64,000 bases of DNA, taken from the IMG/VR virus record IMGVR_UViG_3300017650_000009; one strand, given 5' to 3'. The number at the start of each line of letters is the position of its first letter. Position 1 is the stretch's first letter. Below the pieces are notes generated by a model. That model saw nothing but the letters and a program-made list of their open reading frames with translations, had not been told where the DNA came from and ran no database searches. Positions 26,421 through 63,222 of this stretch are shown here, in pieces. Source of the DNA: a virus. Its lineage: Duplodnaviria > Heunggongvirae > Uroviricota > Caudoviricetes. The position numbers and the translations under genes are program-made.

Positions 26421-26448
26421 AAAACCCGACCTAAGCCGGGTTTAAGGG
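26421..26448 (-). terminator. intrinsic terminator of the tmRNA transcript
   Basis: Minus strand: aaacccggcttaggtcgggttttt. Confidence 0.6.
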
Positions 26449-26850
26449 ACGTTCTGTTTCCAAGTGTATCGCCCAAAACTCATCTGAGATTAAGCAGCGA
26501 GTGCCATCTCAGCAGAAACATTATCGTTTGCTGCATTTATAAAATCGAACATATATTAGTGTTTTGATTTCTAGCCTATCTCACCGAGGTAATCAAGGCG
26601 TCTGATTGGCTTTCCAGTTACCCAGTCCACACTCAAAACATTAATCGGTCGTATCTTACCGGTAACCTACTCGTACCTTTCGCTGCATAGTCGAAGCCTA
26701 TATCGCCCCCATCATAAACACAAAGCACTCTCCAAAAGCCGATCACTCGTCAATCTTCACAGATTGTCACCTTGTGTTTATGGTGGAGGCGCGGGGAACT
26801 GCCCCCCGGTCCTACACAACTATTGAGTTTGTATCAACAGTTACATGGGT
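26421..26850 (-). ncRNA. ssrA: circularly permuted (two-piece) tmRNA gene. In transcript order: acceptor piece (about 26843-26781, ending with T-arm + CGCCUCC-ACCA); intervening segment (26780-26711); coding piece (26710 to about 26449) with 5' GGGGGCG and tag ORF 26534-26490
   Basis: 5' GGGGGCGAUAUAGGCUUCGACUAUGCAGCGAAAGG (compare E. coli GGGGCUGAUUCUGGAUUCGACGGGAUUUGCGAAACC); acceptor stem GGGGGCG/CGCCUCC with G3.U70; T-arm CGGGG-GGCAGUU-CCCCG then ACCA; ...UAUAAAU GCA GCA AAC GAU AAU GUU UCU GCU GAG AUG GCA CUC GCU GCU UAA, peptide AANDNVSAEMALAA. Confidence 0.75.
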
Positions 26851-26880
26851 ATTTAAGCAGGATCGTCTGTTTTTGTCAAC
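26850..26880 (-). promoter_or_regulatory. sigma70-like promoter for tmRNA (TTGACA-17-TTAAAT)
   Basis: Minus strand: gTTGACAaaaacagacgatcctgcTTAAATAcc. Confidence 0.4.
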
Positions 26881-27042
26881 CACTTATCTCGAATATACTG
26901 GACAAATGTGCAGGAGGCTGAACCCCCATATAGGCAAACGATTGCGACTTGTAAATCCCACCAAAGGATCGCAGACATTCCGACGCCGAAACACACATAC
27001 CCGGCTACCTCTAGACAACGGAGAGCTTTTTCAAAAATTACT

Positions 27043-51431: not shown

Positions 51432-52784
51432 TTAATCGAACTTTAGTTTCCCAAGCTCCACAACTTCTTTCCTGTATATGGATTTTAGCTTCTTAGGATC
51501 AGCCAACGTACTGGTGTATTCGGCAATATTATCCTCAAGACGCTTGATATTCTCCAACACACTAGCATAAGCATCCTGCGCCCAACGATACGAAGGCAAG
51601 CTTACAATGCGATCTAGCTGAGAAGCATCCAATAGAATACCACTAGTAATTGCCTTGACTGCATCAGTTATCTCAGCCTTGTTCGCCATAGTACTGAGTT
51701 TGCTTGGAAGCTTTTTATCGAAACAAATCTTAACAGCGCGCCAATAGTTGAGTGCGTATTCGTCCTCTGCTTTCATATATTCGTATCGTGTGGTGTACCA
51801 CTTAAGGCGCCAATCAACAAATGACTTTACAACATCCTCTGCGCAATCATATTGCTTGATCGTACTGTTATTCCAATCCACTACAACGATACGTTCTGAC
51901 TTCTTCTGACGTAACTTGAGGAAATCAATAGCCTTTGTTTCGTCCCATTTTGCAACAGAACCTCGCGCCATTTTAATCTTAATATCGATGGTCTTAGTCG
52001 AACTATCTGTGTAAGAGTTGATCTTTCCATCGTCCTCAAGTGAGTTTAGGCGTTCTTTAAACTTAGCTAGACTCAGATCAACAGGCAATTCAGTAACATG
52101 CAAGGTAGAGGAATCAATAACCGCAACACGTCCAGTAAACTCCCAGGAATTTTCCTCCAAATGCTTAACTTGCACTTGATAACGCGCATAATCGGGAACC
52201 AAACGCTTGATTTCTTTTCCATCAATTGCTGCGAGTGTTGCTTCAACTAGGCTATTGAAGTTACGACGTAGAATCTCCGTAGACCAACCAACCGCAATAC
52301 CCGATACACCATTGAGCAAAACAGTCGGAATCAATGGAAGGAAATGTACGGGTTCCTTTACCGAACCATCATAGTTGTCCTTTAGCGGGACAATATCAAG
52401 ATCAGTGAGCATGAGATTCTGCAGGACTGAGCCTCTACGAACATACGTATAACGAGGAGCACCAATACCCTCCACTGGGGCAGTTCGTGTACCAAAAGCA
52501 CCAATGCCATTGAGCAGCGGGATATTATTAACGAACGGAGCCGCAAGCATACTGACAGCGCCGGCCGCGCTTGCATCACCATGCAGGTACAAACCAGACT
52601 GAATCATTTCACCAGCAAGTGAAACGGTTTTAACCTTTTCTGATTTATTACGGATTAGCCAAAGAGCTTTACGTTGTGCGTCCTTGAGACCGTCATGAAC
52701 CTTTGGGATTGCTCGGTTCTCACAAACGTAAATGGAATATTCGCGTGAAGTATCTAGGATATAATCTGAACTATTTTGAGCCAT
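51432..52784 (-). CDS. type II DNA topoisomerase, GyrA-like cleavage subunit (T4 gp52-like)
   Basis: HDGLKDAQRKALWLI (GyrA DGLKPVHRR motif); RYTYV active-site Tyr region. Confidence 0.75.
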   Translation of the reverse strand: MAQNSSDYILDTSREYSIYVCENRAIPKVHDGLKDAQRKALWLIRNKSEKVKTVSLAGEMIQSGLYLHGDASAAGAVSMLAAPFVNNIPLLNGIGAFGTRTAPVEGIGAPRYTYVRRGSVLQNLMLTDLDIVPLKDNYDGSVKEPVHFLPLIPTVLLNGVSGIAVGWSTEILRRNFNSLVEATLAAIDGKEIKRLVPDYARYQVQVKHLEENSWEFTGRVAVIDSSTLHVTELPVDLSLAKFKERLNSLEDDGKINSYTDSSTKTIDIKIKMARGSVAKWDETKAIDFLKLRQKKSERIVVVDWNNSTIKQYDCAEDVVKSFVDWRLKWYTTRYEYMKAEDEYALNYWRAVKICFDKKLPSKLSTMANKAEITDAVKAITSGILLDASQLDRIVSLPSYRWAQDAYASVLENIKRLEDNIAEYTSTLADPKKLKSIYRKEVVELGKLKFD

Positions 52785-53749: not shown

Positions 53750-53779
53750 AGGGGTATTTGACCCCTTGGGGTCAAATAC
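53750..53779. other. perfect 30-bp palindromic hairpin at intercistronic junction (no T-tract)
   Basis: ggggtatttgacccc-ttg-gggtcaaatacc; overlaps stop of topo subunit and precedes SD of next gene. Confidence 0.5.
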
Positions 53780-55652
53780 CAATCCAATCTTTTCTGTCGT
53801 CTGAACGACCATTGTTAAAGATCAAGTCCAAGGATTCCTTCATATTGCCATCATCGACGAATCCATAAAGTGCTGGATTATCCAACGAATATTGCCAGTC
53901 ATCCTCGGTAAGCGTTCCAAGACCCTTAGCACGAGTAATAGACCAACCGCTATATTCTTTTGGATCAAAATCCATATAGTTGTCAGAGTACCAGTATTTG
54001 CGTGTTTTGCCCTTCTCCGCAATGATGAATGGAGTCTTGAAAATATTAATAAACGCTGGTAGCTTTGGATCAAAAAGTTCTGGCCAATATGTGTGGAAGA
54101 AATTAATCAAAAGTGCGCCAATATTAAGACCATCCGGATCCATATCGTGCGCAATGTAAACGGAACCATAACGTAGCTCATCACGAACAGCTTTACGACC
54201 CAATACTAGACCCAAACTATTCATGATATCAGCGAGTGCTTTATTCGCAATAACAGTCTTCAGATCTTCACCATTGACGTTTAGAACCTTACCACGCAAC
54301 CCCAAGCCGCCATGGATTTTTGGATCACGAACTGACCCCATACCCGAGATAGCAGATTCACCTTCGGCCAAAAATAGTATGCACTTGGTACGATCGTTGC
54401 CGTTTGCATCCATTAGACCAGCCACTTTACTACGAGAAAGCTTCTTTGCTGCCTTTGCAATATCAGCAGCATCTTTCTTCATAGTGCGTTCGGAACAACG
54501 CTTATAGATTTCTTCAATCCATTCTTTGTTCTTTCGGATAACATCCTTGTATAGTTCAGGATCCTCAAGTGCCTTTGTAACGACCTTGGATACTTCTTCG
54601 TTAATCAAGCGAGTCTTTGACTGCGAATCGAAGTTGGGACCATGCATATTTGTGATGTTATAGATGAGAACACCCTCAGTGACATCACTACGGTTTGGAC
54701 TCAACTTACGACGCTTGCTTTCCTTCTCCAATGCATTCAATAGATTACGATAGAAATCACGTCGGAATGTTTCAATATGAACACCGCCGTTGAAAGCTGG
54801 AATATTATTGACTAGTGTATGGAAATGTTCACCATCATTGATAAAATTCGGAACTAGCCAGAAACGTGTACGGAAGTTGTCTTGTTTGATTTCCAAATTA
54901 ATCGGTTTGATCTTCTCAAACATGGTTTGTTCTGGACGCGGCTTTACTCGGATTTGTGTACCATTGAAATACACCTTAATCAACGAGTTAGCAATCGCAA
55001 TCTCTGTAATACGATCACGAACAAACTCAACTGGCAAAGTAGTATCCGAAAATACCTTCTTGCTTAGTTTGAATGTAACCTTGGTTCCAGTCTTTCCACT
55101 TGTAACATCGATGATCTTTGGTTCACTCGCAACTAGTTCCTCACCAAGTGCTTCATTACCCTCTGTGAAACTCTGGGTGAATTTCTTACCATTGCGATGA
55201 ATCACAAGCTTGAAATATTCGGAACAAAAGTTAACGCCGGCAGCACCAATACCATTCGTGCCAGCTACCTCACCACGTTCTTCGAAATTACGACCTGCAC
55301 GAGCATGAGACAAAGCCAATGTTGCAGCATGAACTTGATGATCATCGTCCCAATCGATTGGAATACCGCGACCATTGTCCTCAACTGACATTTCGCGAGT
55401 TTCAGGATCATATGTTACGTCAAGACGATTACCATGACCATGGCCGACTACTTCATCCAAGCTGTTATCGATGATTTCACGGAAGGCCGTATAAACTGCT
55501 GGAACCCATTTATAGGAGCGAGGTTCTGGTTTAGTTCCGTCATATGCGATGACTGTCTGTTCATGCAAGGCGCGTGAACCAAAATACATTTCAGTCTTTA
55601 ATCGAACGTGTGAATAATCGGTGAGTTTCTTAATTGATTTTTCAGATGCCAT
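53772..55652 (-). CDS. type II DNA topoisomerase, GyrB-like ATPase/TOPRIM subunit (T4 gp39+gp60-like)
   Basis: HVRLKTEMYFGS, EIIDNSLDE, DNGRGIP (GHKL ATPase); LAEGESA TOPRIM motif. Confidence 0.8.
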   Translation of the reverse strand: MASEKSIKKLTDYSHVRLKTEMYFGSRALHEQTVIAYDGTKPEPRSYKWVPAVYTAFREIIDNSLDEVVGHGHGNRLDVTYDPETREMSVEDNGRGIPIDWDDDHQVHAATLALSHARAGRNFEERGEVAGTNGIGAAGVNFCSEYFKLVIHRNGKKFTQSFTEGNEALGEELVASEPKIIDVTSGKTGTKVTFKLSKKVFSDTTLPVEFVRDRITEIAIANSLIKVYFNGTQIRVKPRPEQTMFEKIKPINLEIKQDNFRTRFWLVPNFINDGEHFHTLVNNIPAFNGGVHIETFRRDFYRNLLNALEKESKRRKLSPNRSDVTEGVLIYNITNMHGPNFDSQSKTRLINEEVSKVVTKALEDPELYKDVIRKNKEWIEEIYKRCSERTMKKDAADIAKAAKKLSRSKVAGLMDANGNDRTKCILFLAEGESAISGMGSVRDPKIHGGLGLRGKVLNVNGEDLKTVIANKALADIMNSLGLVLGRKAVRDELRYGSVYIAHDMDPDGLNIGALLINFFHTYWPELFDPKLPAFINIFKTPFIIAEKGKTRKYWYSDNYMDFDPKEYSGWSITRAKGLGTLTEDDWQYSLDNPALYGFVDDGNMKESLDLIFNNGRSDDRKDWIGI

Positions 55653-55764
55653 TTTGAATCCAATATTTTTTCTTAAATTTACTAAATTGTTGAGCCAATT
55701 GTCAATTTTCTAGGTGCCAAGAGAAACCCACTAATGAGTTCCACATAATAATTTATGCCTGTGT

Positions 55765-55793
55765 TGACAATCAATATATTTTCCGCTACATTG
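55765..55793 (+). promoter_or_regulatory. sigma70-like (early) promoter TTGACA-17-TACATT
   Basis: gtgTTGACAatcaatatattttccgcTACATTggg upstream of 55811. Confidence 0.4.
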
Positions 55794-55810
55794 GGCAAAA
55801 GGAGTAACCC

Positions 55811-56179
55811 ATGTCTTATATTGCATATGAGCTAGATGAAGTATCAAGAAACAAGCTTTTGGCGATCTTTCCACCAAAGTTTGCTGATTTCATTGGGCAC
55901 CATGTGACTTGGGCATTTGGTGTGGGCTCAGATGTTCCATTGCCGCCGGTTACTGACATTCGTGTTATCGGATATCTCAGCGACGATTCGCTTGAGTGTC
56001 TCGTGGTTGAGGTTGGAGGAACACATGTACGCGAAGATGGTCGAACATACCACATCACTTGGTCGCTTGATCGTGACAAAGGTCGAAAGCCTGCGGAATC
56101 AAATTTTCTTCTTGGTGCTTCTACTTTCTCTAGGATTTCACCTGTGGAGATTCATGCAATCCCCAAGCATTTTAAGTGA
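55811..56179 (+). CDS. 2H phosphoesterase superfamily protein (LigT/CPDase/Acb1-like)
   Basis: Two H-x-T-x motifs: HHVTWAF and YHITWSL. Confidence 0.55.
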   Translation: MSYIAYELDEVSRNKLLAIFPPKFADFIGHHVTWAFGVGSDVPLPPVTDIRVIGYLSDDSLECLVVEVGGTHVREDGRTYHITWSLDRDKGRKPAESNFLLGASTFSRISPVEIHAIPKHFK

Positions 56180-56604
56180 GACTAATGAATAACATTGATA
56201 TGACTGTGGTAACATACCCGGATTACCATTTGGAGCCGGGAGCCCACAATATTGTTGTAACTGGTGGGCATAAAGATCGGCAGCAAATACAAGATTTAAT
56301 TGGTGAGCTTTGGCCCTCCAAAGTCGCAGTTTATCATCTAGAGAATCCGAGTATTCCCAATGTGAATTCCAAAATTGCTCACGCATTCACGTATATGAGT
56401 TTGTCTCATACTCAGATTATTTTGATTGAGCAAACCTCTTCCCTTCTAACCAATATGCTTCCTATTTGCAAAAATGCGTTCATCATTATTGTTGACGATC
56501 AGGCGTTAGAATATGTGACCTGTTCTTTAAACTTGACATATCCGGGTCGCCTGTTTTTTAATATAGAAGACGCGGTTAAAGCTGCAATTTTGGCTACCAA
56601 ATAA
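56176..56604 (+). CDS. hypothetical protein
   Basis: ATGA overlap with upstream gene. Confidence 0.4.
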   Translation: MRLMNNIDMTVVTYPDYHLEPGAHNIVVTGGHKDRQQIQDLIGELWPSKVAVYHLENPSIPNVNSKIAHAFTYMSLSHTQIILIEQTSSLLTNMLPICKNAFIIIVDDQALEYVTCSLNLTYPGRLFFNIEDAVKAAILATK

Positions 56605-56637: not shown

Positions 56638-57882
56638 ATGGCCAACAAAGAACTCACTTGCTCGTTTTGCGAAAAGAGCCAACATGAAGTTAAAAAACTG
56701 ATTGCTGGCCCAGACGTTTACATTTGCGATGGTTGCGCAATTCTCTGTTATGAGATTCTGGATGAAAAGCCAGGTGCAGAACTAAGTGTGTCGGATGATA
56801 CACCTACACCACGTAAGATTAAGGAATTCCTCGATCAATACGTTATTGGTCAAGATGACGCAAAAATGGTTTTTGCAGTTGCAGTTAATGCTCATTATAA
56901 GCGACTCGAAAATCCAATTGTTGATGGAGTTGAACTTGAGAAATCCAACATTTTGTTGCTCGGTCCAACAGGATCAGGTAAAACGCTTATTGCAAAGAGT
57001 ATTGCACGTATGCTTGATGTACCTTTCACGATTGCCGACGCGACGAGCCTGACGGAAGCCGGTTATGTCGGTGATGATGTTGAATCTATCATTAGCCGGT
57101 TGATAGCATCAGCAGAAGGTGATGTGAAGAAAGCCGAACGTGGAATCATCTACTTGGATGAAATCGACAAGAAAGCAAAGAAATCCGAAAATATGAGTAT
57201 TACTCGCGATGTTTCCGGTGAAGGTGTTCAGCAGGCTCTTTTGAAGATCATCGAAGGTTCCGAAGTTCGTGTTCCTGCACAAGGTGGACGTAAAAATCCT
57301 TCGCAGGAAATGCTAACAGTTGATACATCAAATATCCTGTTCATCGTCGGTGGCGCGTTTGTTGGCCTTGAGGCAATCATTGATAAGCGCGTGAATAACA
57401 ACGATAATAGCATTGGTTTCGGTGCAAAGCCAAAGAAGTCTGGAAAACTAGCATATGATGGTTCCCTACTAAAGCAAGTTGAACCAGAGGATCTTGCCAA
57501 ATACGGTATTATTCCGGAACTCATCGGTCGACTCAGTACAATTACGTATCTCGAGGAGCTTAACGCGGAACAGTTGATCCGCGTCCTCACTGAACCTAAG
57601 AACGCGATTACACGCCAATATGAAAAGCTATTTAAGCTGGAAAAGGTCGAACTTACGTTCGAACCAGAAGCTCTTCAATTTGTTGCGGAAACTGCAATTG
57701 CTCGTAAAGTGGGTGCTCGTGGTCTTCGTAGTGTTATCGAGCGTAAGTTGACAAAACTACAGTATGAGCTACCTGAACTAGCAGCGGATGGTGTAACAAA
57801 GATCTCTTTGAACCGTGAGTTCTTCGAGCTTGACACTGCGCCTACCCTAGTGTATGAATCAAAAAAGACCGGTTCTAATTGA
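56638..57882 (+). CDS. clpX: ClpX ATP-dependent protease ATPase subunit
   Basis: N-terminal zinc-binding [11 protein letters not shown]...[10 protein letters not shown]; Walker [12 protein letters not shown]; full-length 414 aa. Confidence 0.85.
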
Positions 57883-57917
57883 TCCGGTCGACCGCAAATA
57901 TAAAGGAGAATTTTTCG

Positions 57918-58439
57918 GTGAATCTCACACATGATGTGAACAATAAGATCCGTGCTAAAGAAGTGCGTGTAATCGATAACAACGGCGAACAGATTGGCGT
58001 GCTTGCGTTAGCTGATGCCCAGAAACTTGCTGATGAATGTGATCTTGATCTAGTAGTGATCAATCCAAAGTCAGCTCCACCAATTGCCCGTATTGTCGAT
58101 TATGGCAAGTTCAAGTACGAGCTTGTTCGTAGTGAGAAGGAACGCAAGAAAAAGTCTCGCGAAAACATCATCGATGTTAAGGAAGTTCAGCTTCGTCCAG
58201 TCACGGACACACACGATGTTGAGATCAAAGCCAAGCGCGCCAAGTCATTCCTCGAGGATGGTGACAAAGTGAAGGTGGTAGTCCGTTTCAAGGGTCGTGA
58301 GCTATCCCATCGCGAAATGGGTCAAAAGATCATCGATAGTTTTTGCGTCCTTGTGGGCGAAGAAAACTATAAAGTTGATTCTCCAGTACAGATGTCTGGT
58401 CGTCAGATGTCTATGATTCTTAGCCCTAACCGCAAGTAA
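57918..58439 (+). CDS. infC: translation initiation factor IF-3 (start GTG 57918 after SD aaggag; alternatively TTG 57879)
   Basis: INNKIRAKEVRVIDNNGEQIGV...DLDLVVINPKSAPPIARIVDYGKFKYE...KEVQLRP...VVRFKGRELSHREMGQKII matches IF3 N- and C-domains. Confidence 0.8.
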   Translation: MNLTHDVNNKIRAKEVRVIDNNGEQIGVLALADAQKLADECDLDLVVINPKSAPPIARIVDYGKFKYELVRSEKERKKKSRENIIDVKEVQLRPVTDTHDVEIKAKRAKSFLEDGDKVKVVVRFKGRELSHREMGQKIIDSFCVLVGEENYKVDSPVQMSGRQMSMILSPNRK

Positions 58440-61383: not shown

Positions 61384-63222
61384 TTAAATTGGTTTATATG
61401 TAAGCATTATCTTTATTTCACCTGTGGTGCTACCCACGGTGAAGAATGTTTTAGAAACCATGTTAGCAATTGCTATTTTTCGCAATGAAGTCAAGCTATC
61501 AAAAGCTGCAAACCCTTTTGTTTGGTTTCCAATCCAATAGCTAGACATCGTTGTGTTTCCAGAAGTACCGTTTTCGACATAATACATATACGTACAATCA
61601 ATATATTCAACTGGACGGGTTAAATTAATCAGTAGCGTTTTTGGGGAACCCGCTGGTATCGTTGGTTGGAATGTAGAAAGTGTCGCGATTGTTGGTGAAT
61701 TGTTAGCTGATTCAATTGAATATGTTGTCATTGGTCCATTAACAAAATTCACTTTAATCCATAAAATTTGAACTTCATTAGTATTATATGAACCAAACGA
61801 TAAACCATTGCCTGCTGGATTTACGACAATTGCACGACCTGATTGCCCGGAATAAGTTGCTGGGGTGTCAGTTAATTTCAAAAAAGTATCCGCTCCCGGC
61901 GTAGCAGCCTTGAATTCCAAAGCAGTACCAGAAGCATTTACACCAACAATTTTATTGCCTTGCCCCAAAAGCGTTGAAGGTGCATCAATTAGATCGGTAA
62001 ATTTGGCAATGTTAGTCGGATTCCCCCATTTAAAATCATAATCTGCATTGGAATTCTTCACCAAGATCTGATTTGTTGTACCAGCTTTCGGTAAACCTAT
62101 ACCAGGGTCACCTTTTTCTCCATCTTGACCATTAATGCCGTTTGATCCATTGATACCAGGGTCACCTTTTTCACCTCGTTCACCACGGTCTCCCTGGTCA
62201 CCCTTTAGCCCTTGGATGCCTTGAAGCCCTTGTTCGCCTCGATCACCCTTTTCGCCCTTTTCACCGCGCGGACCAACATTGCCTTCTGGACCCTCCGGTC
62301 CAGAAACACCGACGATGGGACCCAAATCGCGCCAAATACCTCCTGGTTCATAACGTACAAGATGACCACCCATATCGCCATTAAGAGCCGCAGGCAATGA
62401 TTGATCAGCTCTATCATCACCTTCTGCAATTACTAGGTAATTCCATTCCACATCTGCGGCTTCAATACGAGCAATTGTAGCTTCATCAAAAATTCCATAT
62501 TCATCAGGGATAATGGTAGCGCCTAACTCACCTCGTAACCCACGAGGTCCTGTTGCACCATCTAATCCGTTTGTTCCGTCTTTGCCATCGATGCCGTCGC
62601 GTCCATCTGTTCCCGGATCTCCTTTATCACCTTTTTCGCCTTTGTCACCTGTAGATCCAGCTTCACCTTTAATCGAGTAAAGCCAATCCTGTTCTGTTCC
62701 GATGAATCCATTATCCAAAGCAATTTCATATGCTGATTTGCCAGTAAATGCCAATTTACTCACATATAAGCCATCATCCACTATAGTAATCGCATTATCT
62801 GGATCAGCTGACAATAAAACATTAGCTGTTAATGGACTATCTAGAATACCTGAACCAGATAGCTGTATAGTTGAACTTGAATTAGTCCGCAAAACCGATG
62901 AACCGTTATATGCAATTTCGATTGTTTCTGCATTTTGTATCAGGGTGATATTCTCACCGCCAATTAATGTTTTAAAATAAAAATTATTTTCCCTACGGCT
63001 ATTATAAACTGGTAAGCCTGTTCCTATATTAATAAGATTTATACCAACGGGTAGGGGCGATACATCCGTCGGACTTGCAGGCATTGGGGTATCTGTTCCA
63101 GGAGTTCCAGGATTTCTACGTTTGGAGATATCATTTGGATCACTAATCCCGCCTTGAGTTCCTGGAAGTGGAAATAACTCTCCAGTTCCATATTGGATCC
63201 CATACTTGTCAAAAGAACTCAT
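61384..63222 (-). CDS. collagen-like-repeat tail fiber protein
   Basis: Two G-x-y triple-helix blocks (GDKGEKGDKGDPGTDGRDGIDGKDG...; GPEGPEGNVGPRGEKGEKGDRGEQGLQGIQGLKGDQGDRGERGEKGDPG...). Confidence 0.7.
   Translation of the reverse strand: MSSFDKYGIQYGTGELFPLPGTQGGISDPNDISKRRNPGTPGTDTPMPASPTDVSPLPVGINLINIGTGLPVYNSRRENNFYFKTLIGGENITLIQNAETIEIAYNGSSVLRTNSSSTIQLSGSGILDSPLTANVLLSADPDNAITIVDDGLYVSKLAFTGKSAYEIALDNGFIGTEQDWLYSIKGEAGSTGDKGEKGDKGDPGTDGRDGIDGKDGTNGLDGATGPRGLRGELGATIIPDEYGIFDEATIARIEAADVEWNYLVIAEGDDRADQSLPAALNGDMGGHLVRYEPGGIWRDLGPIVGVSGPEGPEGNVGPRGEKGEKGDRGEQGLQGIQGLKGDQGDRGERGEKGDPGINGSNGINGQDGEKGDPGIGLPKAGTTNQILVKNSNADYDFKWGNPTNIAKFTDLIDAPSTLLGQGNKIVGVNASGTALEFKAATPGADTFLKLTDTPATYSGQSGRAIVVNPAGNGLSFGSYNTNEVQILWIKVNFVNGPMTTYSIESANNSPTIATLSTFQPTIPAGSPKTLLINLTRPVEYIDCTYMYYVENGTSGNTTMSSYWIGNQTKGFAAFDSLTSLRKIAIANMVSKTFFTVGSTTGEIKIMLTYKPI

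Follow-up and report, generated by a model that had tools for sequence, protein, structure and literature searches.

A minimal 2H phosphoesterase of an Atu_ph07-like jumbo phage: a candidate 2',3'-cyclic phosphodiesterase from a large, unnamed family

The 2H gene and its protein family

The window analyzed here is the whole 64,000-nucleotide stretch of the Caudoviricetes record IMGVR_UViG_3300017650_000009, in which a short plus-strand gene encodes a protein of 122 amino acids. A first-pass annotation had assigned this protein to the 2H phosphoesterases on the basis of two H-x-T-x motifs, HVTW and HITW. Both motifs were confirmed, at residues 31 to 34 (with an extra histidine before the first) and 81 to 84. 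The features of the gene are listed below.

55811..56179 (+): 2H phosphoesterase gene, 122 amino acids, ATG to TGA, with the TGA included in the end coordinate
55898..55912 (+): catalytic motif 1, H30-H31-V32-T33-W34 (HxT = H31 and T33), which opens strand 31-36 of the model
56051..56065 (+): catalytic motif 2, H81-I82-T83-W84-S85, which opens strand 81-86 of the model
55799..55804 (+): Shine-Dalgarno sequence AAGGAG, 6 nt ahead of the ATG, seen directly in the sequence
55764..55792 (+): sigma-70-like promoter match TTGACA-17-TACATT, 10 of 12 positions, weak evidence

A longer N terminus was ruled out by an in-frame TAA just upstream of the start (6 nt before the ATG). The GC content of the gene was similar to that of neighboring genes. 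Two HxT motifs arose in 2.7% of shuffled versions of the protein, and two H[VIL]TW motifs arose in 0 of 100,000 shuffles. The promoter match was not enriched over shuffles and was not conserved in Sinorhizobium jumbo phage Phosso (469 kb) or Agrobacterium phage Atu_ph07 (490 kb). In the same intergenic region, the 20-mer CACATAATAATTTATGCCTG at 55742-55761 (+) was identical in the corresponding region of Phosso, and a minus-strand TTGACA (TGTCAA, about 55700-55705) was common to the window, Phosso, and Atu_ph07. Both elements could act in regulating the divergently transcribed topoisomerase and 2H genes.

No match to the 2H protein was found in Pfam, NCBIfam, or PADLOC, even at E ≤ 10; PHROG 36523, described as of "unknown function," matched residues 2 to 105 (E = 4e-32). 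An initial homolog search recovered 36 homologs with 42 to 100% identity. A profile search of 1.84 billion representatives returned 1,519 clusters at E ≤ 1e-3, and a broader profile (A3) returned 5,924 clusters among 5.8 billion proteins. The 120 A3 matches listed were all short, without a Pfam domain, and unnamed or "hypothetical"; since only such solo, unannotated proteins were listed, no census of fusions was taken from this search. The family was estimated to comprise at least 5,900 clusters at a 90% identity threshold and about 1,500 at 50%. When 50,697 GenBank phage records were searched by tblastn with the window protein and a divergent marine member, the family was found only in Phosso, Salicola phage SCTP-2, Atu_ph07, and Ralstonia phage RsoM2USA, all of which are jumbo phages of 344 to 490 kb. 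It was also present in the genomes of at least 397 bacterial species, mostly Sphingomonadales and Azospirillum. A subgroup of proteins of about 200 amino acids (P0038, P0199, P0209, P0242, P0256, and others) carried a conserved, helical-looking N-terminal extension of about 70 residues that starts with MRAEEF and had no Pfam match.

The residues H31, T33, H81, T83, and S85 were invariant in alignments of 32 and 60 sequences. Across 187 sequences, H31, T33, H81, and S85 were conserved in 100% and T83 in 99%. Conservation of at least 90% was observed for R74, S97, N98, G54, G70, and D76. It is close to certain that the protein is a 2H phosphoesterase with an intact active site.

Predicted fold and relation to known 2H branches

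An AlphaFold2 model of the protein, built from a 32-sequence alignment, had a mean predicted local distance difference test (pLDDT) score of 96.6 and a predicted template modeling score of 0.89, with 121 of 122 residues above a pLDDT of 90. The modeled topology was beta-alpha-beta-beta / beta-beta-alpha-beta-beta, and each HxT motif started a beta strand. The features of the 2H superfamily were thus found in the protein, namely one HxT/S-x motif per lobe and a bilobed alpha+beta fold with pseudo-twofold symmetry. Together with the conservation of the motifs, the model bears out the fold suggested in the first-pass annotation, and we regard the predicted 2H fold as established.

A Foldseek search of the PDB with the model gave nothing informative. 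In the structural comparison, the highest score was obtained with the mouse CNPase catalytic domain (2xmi; 10.9, 114 residues at 2.5 Å), followed by Acb1 7t27 (7.7), the BCSR5 phosphodiesterase (PDE) 9q2y (6.9), the Deinococcus cyclic phosphodiesterase (CPDase; 6.8), Pyrococcus LigT (6.5), the plant CPDase acting on the ADP-ribose cyclic phosphate Appr>p (6.2), E. coli-type ThpR (6.1), murine hepatitis virus (MHV) ns2 (6.0), and VP3 (5.6). Scores of 5.0 to 5.2 were obtained with ASCC1, AKAP18, Atu0111, YjcG, the penguinpox cGAMP PDE, and Usb1. Among predicted viral structures, the only matches at E < 1e-3 were a Cafeteria roenbergensis virus protein of 771 amino acids and a Marseillevirus LCMAC202 "RNA ligase" of 765 amino acids (E = 5.4e-4, TMq 0.66, 21% identity). 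Next were a Sylvanvirus protein, a Homavirus protein (738 amino acids), and a Tupanvirus "T4 1 superfamily RNA ligase" (797 amino acids). Viral models named Acb1 had E values of 0.03 to 0.1 and TMq values of 0.43 to 0.45. Trl1-like RNA ligases of about 800 amino acids carry a C-terminal 2H cyclic phosphodiesterase (CPD) domain, and we infer that the giant-virus matches fall in this domain, the search itself giving no alignment coordinates. Collectively, the model indicates that the nearest structural branch of the protein is of the CNPase/CPD type, not Acb1. Compared with CNPase and the Trl1 CPD domain, the window protein has 14% identity, is about half the size (122 versus about 215 amino acids), and stands alone; PF05881 (CNPase) and its relatives gave no Pfam match at E ≤ 10.

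The protein had first been put forward as a candidate relative of Acb1. Under this hypothesis, it would be an immune-evasion PDE that cleaves cyclic di- or trinucleotide or other oligonucleotide messengers early in infection, such as those of the cyclic oligonucleotide-based antiphage signaling system (CBASS), type III CRISPR, or Panoptes-type systems. The part of this proposal that stood was the 2H fold, with Acb1 as the second-best solved structure. Like T4 Acb1, the protein is small and acidic (isoelectric point [pI] of 6.0 versus 5.1), and the sigma-70-like match is compatible with early expression. In addition, the Atu_ph07 ortholog, AUZ94815.1, is among the 75 phage 2H PDE candidates in Supplemental Table 1 of Doherty et al. 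2025, outside the 16 enzymes that were purified. However, the CNPase structure was clearly the better match, and no sequence homology was detected. The profile comparison with T4 57B suggested at first pass (hhalign of the family profile A1 against the T4 gene 57B product from NC_000866) gave a probability of 0.5% and an E value of 0.11 over only 18 columns around HITWS/HITLS, and hence no sequence-level relation to Acb1. A phmmer and profile search of all PDB chain sequences found no 2H protein and hence neither Acb1 nor CNPase.

A short flexible C- or N-terminal lid contributes to the activity of Acb1 and PDE-9 (Doherty et al., bioRxiv 10.1101/2025.08.21.671373). The model of the window protein was ordered from residue 3 to 121 of 122 at a pLDDT above 90, with no residues outside the core. 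Because of this order and the upstream in-frame stop, there is no room for an N- or C-terminal lid, and none of the Acb1 type was present in the model at either end. The protein therefore differs from Acb1 (T4 gene 57B; FBB1 Acb1, PDB 7T27) and BCSR5 PDE-9 (PDB 9Q2Y) in having neither detectable sequence homology nor a lid. Acb1 membership was rejected on three features: sequence homology, the terminal lid, and Acb1 as the nearest structural neighbor. An activity on immune messengers is also disfavored by the report that, in two entire structural groups of phage 2H PDEs, none of 18 cyclic or oligonucleotide messengers was cleaved (Doherty et al. 2025). No family member was detected among the GenBank-derived purified enzymes of that study in the tblastn search of 50,697 phage records, metagenome-derived enzymes being outside this comparison.

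A LigT-like cyclic phosphodiesterase had been named as the alternative to Acb1. Its 2',3'-cyclic phosphodiesterase chemistry is the one favored below, but the LigT family is not: the models of the LigT/ThpR RNA 2',3'-cyclic phosphodiesterases (PF02834 and PF13563) did not match the protein at E ≤ 10, and LigT scored 6.5 versus 10.9 for CNPase. Both types of domain occur in P0147, a metagenomic polyvalent protein of 2070 amino acids with a LigT-type domain at 167-304, a domain of the present 2H family at 1013-1135, and a GNAT domain. That the two are carried side by side implies that they are not redundant and differ in specificity.

The enzymes Usb1, coronavirus ns2, and rotavirus VP3 represent a further possibility, a transesterifying RNase or 2'-5' PDE that trims RNA 3' ends or degrades 2'-5'-oligoadenylate. 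These matches are of the same fold but scored below CNPase, Acb1, and LigT, and no specific contextual support was found. As described below, linkage to HAD and Rnl1 and fusion to a polynucleotide kinase (PNK) point to end healing rather than end generation, and we consider this the least probable of the readings weighed here.

Gene neighborhoods and domain fusions

Open reading frames (ORFs) were called in 78 IMG/VR and 80 bacterial loci, neighbors were clustered, and cluster representatives were annotated with Pfam. The phage set comprised 63 nonidentical loci, including five GenBank/window loci, and represented 48 lineages at 70% identity. The commonest phage neighbor of the 2H gene encoded a haloacid dehalogenase (HAD) phosphatase of about 170 amino acids with a DxDGV motif. 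This protein resembles 5'(3')-deoxyribonucleotidases (NT5C-like), with PF06941 scores of 22 to 24.7 bits, just below the cutoff. The HAD gene lay within six genes of the 2H gene in 29 of 63 phage loci (21 lineages) and directly adjoined it on the same strand in 18 of 48 lineages, in either order; in most cases, the stop codon of one gene overlapped or abutted the start codon of the next.

Seven phage loci contained, whole or minus one end, the same-strand array RlaP > c34 > calcineurin-like phosphoesterase > c6 > HAD > 2H > T4-type Rnl1, in which RlaP is the "RNA repair pathway" nucleotidyltransferase PF10127 and Rnl1 is T4-type RNA ligase 1 (PF09511 plus PF20819). The array was complete from RlaP to Rnl1 in L063, L034, L066, and L071, was without RlaP in the fetched stretch of L033, and was without Rnl1 in L082 and L035. 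RlaP was found in five lineages, as was Rnl1. A second phage arrangement had the order dCMP deaminase-NrdA-NrdB-glutaredoxin-2H-HAD, and topoisomerase genes recurred near the 2H gene across phage loci.

The 2H-HAD pairing was also found in bacteria, where HAD followed 2H in 33 of 80 loci (7 of 17 lineages), with most gaps between -4 and +5 nt. All 33 bacterial HAD proteins were matched by the phage HAD hidden Markov model (HMM) at E ≤ 5e-27. In sphingomonads, as read from the sequences, the pair has a Mur ligase gene on one side and histidine kinase and response regulator genes on the other, a setting that resembles the core chromosome and not a mobile element. In Azospirillum-type loci (L087, L089, L094, L096, L103, L132, L144, and L152), the 2H gene followed that of a conserved protein of about 540 amino acids (g19), often preceded by one of about 370 amino acids (g20); g19 and g20 had no Pfam match, and these loci had no adjacent HAD gene.

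Multidomain proteins accounted for 18 of the best 150 family representatives. The following fusions were observed.

2H + ART-PolyVal: P0043, P0062, P0093, P0169
2H + NUDIX: P0053, P0043, P0045
2H + GNAT: P0040, P0045, P0093, P0147
2H + MuF: P0176
2H + ParB-N: P0046 (weak match, below the Pfam cutoff)
2H + cREC "cyclic-phosphate processing" domain: P0052, P0062 (N-terminal side, about 30 and 110 residues upstream)
2H + P-loop kinase (AAA_33): P0105
2H + LigT-type 2H (PF13563): P0147

Among named PDB entries, the P0105 kinase was closest to polynucleotide kinases, including mammalian PNKP (3e-7). A further match at 4e-5 was to PDB entries themselves named "Metallophosphoesterase," which we take to be the Clostridium thermocellum Pnkp kinase domain. 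Fusions of 2H with HAD, Rnl1, or similar partners were found in none of the 295 proteins collected. In keeping with the CNPase/Trl1-CPD branch, the family combines the closest fold with links to a polynucleotide kinase and to an RNA ligase.

These contexts bear on the Acb1-like hypothesis in both directions. Family members resemble the 2H domains of polyvalent proteins (Iyer et al. 2017) in that they sit in ART-PolyVal, MuF, NUDIX, and GNAT polyvalent proteins, and the ART-PolyVal, MuF, ParB-N, and GNAT domains with which relatives are embedded are typical of injected antidefense proteins (PMC5512222). This membership shows that many relatives are deployed in conflicts. However, the partners of the family (HAD, Rnl1, RlaP, and PNK) and the existence of bacterial chromosomal homologs set it apart from Acb1, and both the linkage to RNA ligase, RlaP, and polynucleotide kinase and the chromosomal 2H-HAD pair conserved in Sphingomonadales beside the Mur ligase gene argue against an Acb1-like enzyme. 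Taken with the structural evidence, we consider an Acb1-like function unlikely.

The fusions to NUDIX and ART-PolyVal domains (P0053, P0043, and P0045; P0043, P0062, P0093, and P0169) instead suggest a processor of NAD+- or ADP-ribose-derived cyclic phosphates that works with Nudix enzymes on Appr>p from KptA/Tpt1 or sirtuin-type 2'-phosphotransferases, or on another ADP-ribose (ADPr)-linked signal. Sirtuin-2H-Nudix-cREC-PIN neighborhoods, with proposed ADPr>P processing, have been described in jumbo phages (Iyer et al. 2022, PMC9503650), and in Atu_ph07 the HAD homolog has a NUDIX gene two genes away. However, KptA, sirtuin, and Nudix genes were not among the recurrent 2H neighbors in the 63 phage or 80 bacterial loci, nor did any lie beside the window gene, and the partner that predominates is a phosphatase of the HAD type instead of a Nudix enzyme. 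We therefore regard this role as very unlikely.

The window itself is part of an Atu_ph07-like jumbo phage, as judged by its similarity to Phosso, the conserved gene order, and metagenomic contigs, as long as 434,884 bp, that encode an identical 2H protein. Phosso was the nearest sequenced relative; the two topoisomerase genes are 78% identical at the nucleotide level. The 2H gene is flanked upstream by a gene for a T4-type topoisomerase II large subunit at 53772..55652 (-), with a topoisomerase IV subunit A-like gene at 51432..52784 (-). On the plus strand 3' of the 2H gene, a 142-amino-acid ORF is followed by genes for homologs of ClpX and IF-3 and for an HNH protein. The window, Phosso, and Atu_ph07 share the order topoisomerase (-) / 2H (+) / (small ORF) / ClpX / IF-3; the Atu_ph07 ortholog, AUZ94815.1, has 40% identity to the window protein and the same synteny. 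In this phage group, the 2H gene is isolated, with the topoisomerase II genes on one side and the clpX/infC-like genes on the other. Since topoisomerase genes recur near 2H in other phage loci, this position appears to be old synteny.

The GTG start of the 142-amino-acid ORF, at 56176-56604 (+), overlaps the 2H stop codon (GTGA). Its product had no Pfam, NCBIfam, or PADLOC match. The ORF was kept in Phosso (143 amino acids) and L007 (140 amino acids) and was absent from Atu_ph07, and related IMG/VR contigs had an AdoMet decarboxylase (AdoMetDC) gene and a transmembrane (TM) protein gene in its place. As a protein without a family that is swapped in related contigs and absent from Atu_ph07, it was rejected as a functional partner of the 2H enzyme. 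The neighbor-cluster HMMs for c34, c6, AdoMetDC, the TM protein, and AAA had no match in the 64-kb window.

Other features of the window were noted. The ClpX homolog, at 56638-57882 (+), has a C4 zinc finger, and the IF-3 homolog, at 57879-58439 (+), is full length; the two genes overlap by 4 nt, and their order is kept in Phosso and Atu_ph07. A permuted two-piece transfer-messenger RNA of the alphaproteobacterial type lies at 26443-26917 (-), with the ARAGORN tag peptide AANDNVSAEMALAA and Rfam scores of 90.4 bits (RF04321) and 73.2 bits (RF01849). A protein of 612 amino acids encoded at 61384-63222 (-) contains collagen triple-helix repeats (PF01391, 1e-22) and may be related to the hair-like fibers reported for Atu_ph07.

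Candidate substrate and role

The best explanation for these observations, which we hold with slightly better than even confidence, is that the protein is a lid-less minimal 2H enzyme that hydrolyzes a 2',3'-cyclic phosphate; we infer the substrate, product, and role. This chemistry is favored on three independent grounds: the nearest folds are those of CNPase and of giant-virus proteins, some of them named RNA ligase; the partnership with a phosphomonoesterase is conserved; and there are links to polynucleotide kinase, cREC, RlaP, and Rnl1. Like CNPase and the CPD domain of tRNA ligase, the enzyme would open the cyclic phosphate to yield a phosphomonoester, and its likely substrates would be RNA ends or nucleotides made by metal-independent RNases. 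In many relatives, the NT5C-like HAD phosphatase encoded by the adjoining gene may then strip the monophosphate, and in some phages the Rnl1 ligase may then reseal the RNA.

Two roles for such an enzyme were considered. The PNK fusion and the ligase cassette favor an RNA-end substrate and thus healing or cleanup of RNA ends after nuclease attack. The NT5C-like HAD partner, the nucleotide-metabolism neighbors, and the mildly acidic pI favor a small-molecule substrate and thus clearance or salvage of 2',3'-cyclic nucleoside monophosphates (2',3'-cNMPs). The RNA-end role seems somewhat the more probable of the two.

Several observations weigh against 2',3'-cyclic phosphate hydrolysis in RNA-end healing or nucleotide clearance. 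The RNA-ligase cassette is limited to a minority of phages (5 of 48 lineages), and the NrdAB, glutaredoxin, dCMP deaminase, and topoisomerase neighbors, which make up much of the signal, are ordinary T4-like synteny. None of the neighbor-cluster HMMs for HAD, Rnl1, RlaP, and the metallophosphoesterase had a match in the window, and the HAD homologs of Phosso (121568-122038) and Atu_ph07 (gp301, annotated as a 5'-3' deoxyribonucleotidase) lie more than 100 kb from the 2H gene in an unrelated neighborhood. Many relatives are domains of polyvalent antidefense proteins (ART, NUDIX, GNAT, MuF, and ParB-N). The mildly acidic pI of the family (median of 6.1) argues weakly against the binding of long RNA. 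A full-text literature search found no experimental characterization, and hence no assayed substrate, for any family member. Finally, Iyer et al. 2017 (PMC5512222), whose study dealt with both solo phage 2H proteins and 2H domains within polyvalent proteins, reported no RNA-ligase linkage for the polyvalent type and favored an RNase role or the degradation of nucleotide signals.

The conserved gene pair also lends itself to a counterdefense hypothesis, in which 2H and HAD form a two-step phosphodiesterase-then-phosphomonoesterase system that destroys a cyclic-phosphate stress or immune signal outside current test panels. Candidate signals are 2',3'-cNMPs or short RNA fragments bearing a cyclic phosphate (RNA>p) from defense RNases or TIR-type enzymes. 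If true, this would explain why some of the structural groups studied by Doherty et al. were inactive on all 18 messengers. Such a system would serve phages and injected polyvalent proteins against host defenses; we consider it quite unlikely.

The family clade has very probably been seen computationally in earlier surveys. Hydrolysis of 2',3'-cyclic phosphates agrees with Iyer et al. 2021 (PMC7824862), in which Atu_ph07 was placed in jumbo-phage group 2.2 and the 2H enzymes of that group were assigned to 2',3'-cyclic phosphate processing. If the 2017 alignment represents the same clade, the lack of RNA-ligase linkage stated there is at odds with the Rnl1/RlaP cassette and with the PNK fusion. 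New here are the rejection of Acb1 membership on the features tested, the placement of the nearest branch as CNPase/CPD-like, the 2H-HAD module conserved between phages and alphaproteobacteria, and the linkages to RNA ligase, RlaP, and PNK.

These findings concern a very large family that occurs in phages, polyvalent proteins, and alphaproteobacterial chromosomes and that has neither a Pfam model nor a functional name. Since only four isolated phages, all jumbo, carry the family, the window gene and its Phosso and Atu_ph07 orthologs are tractable entry points, and the conserved 2H-HAD gene pair is a directly testable two-step pathway. A decision between end healing and signal degradation would assign a substrate to an "orphan" branch of phage 2H enzymes and would tell whether small viral 2H enzymes should by default be read as anti-CBASS proteins.
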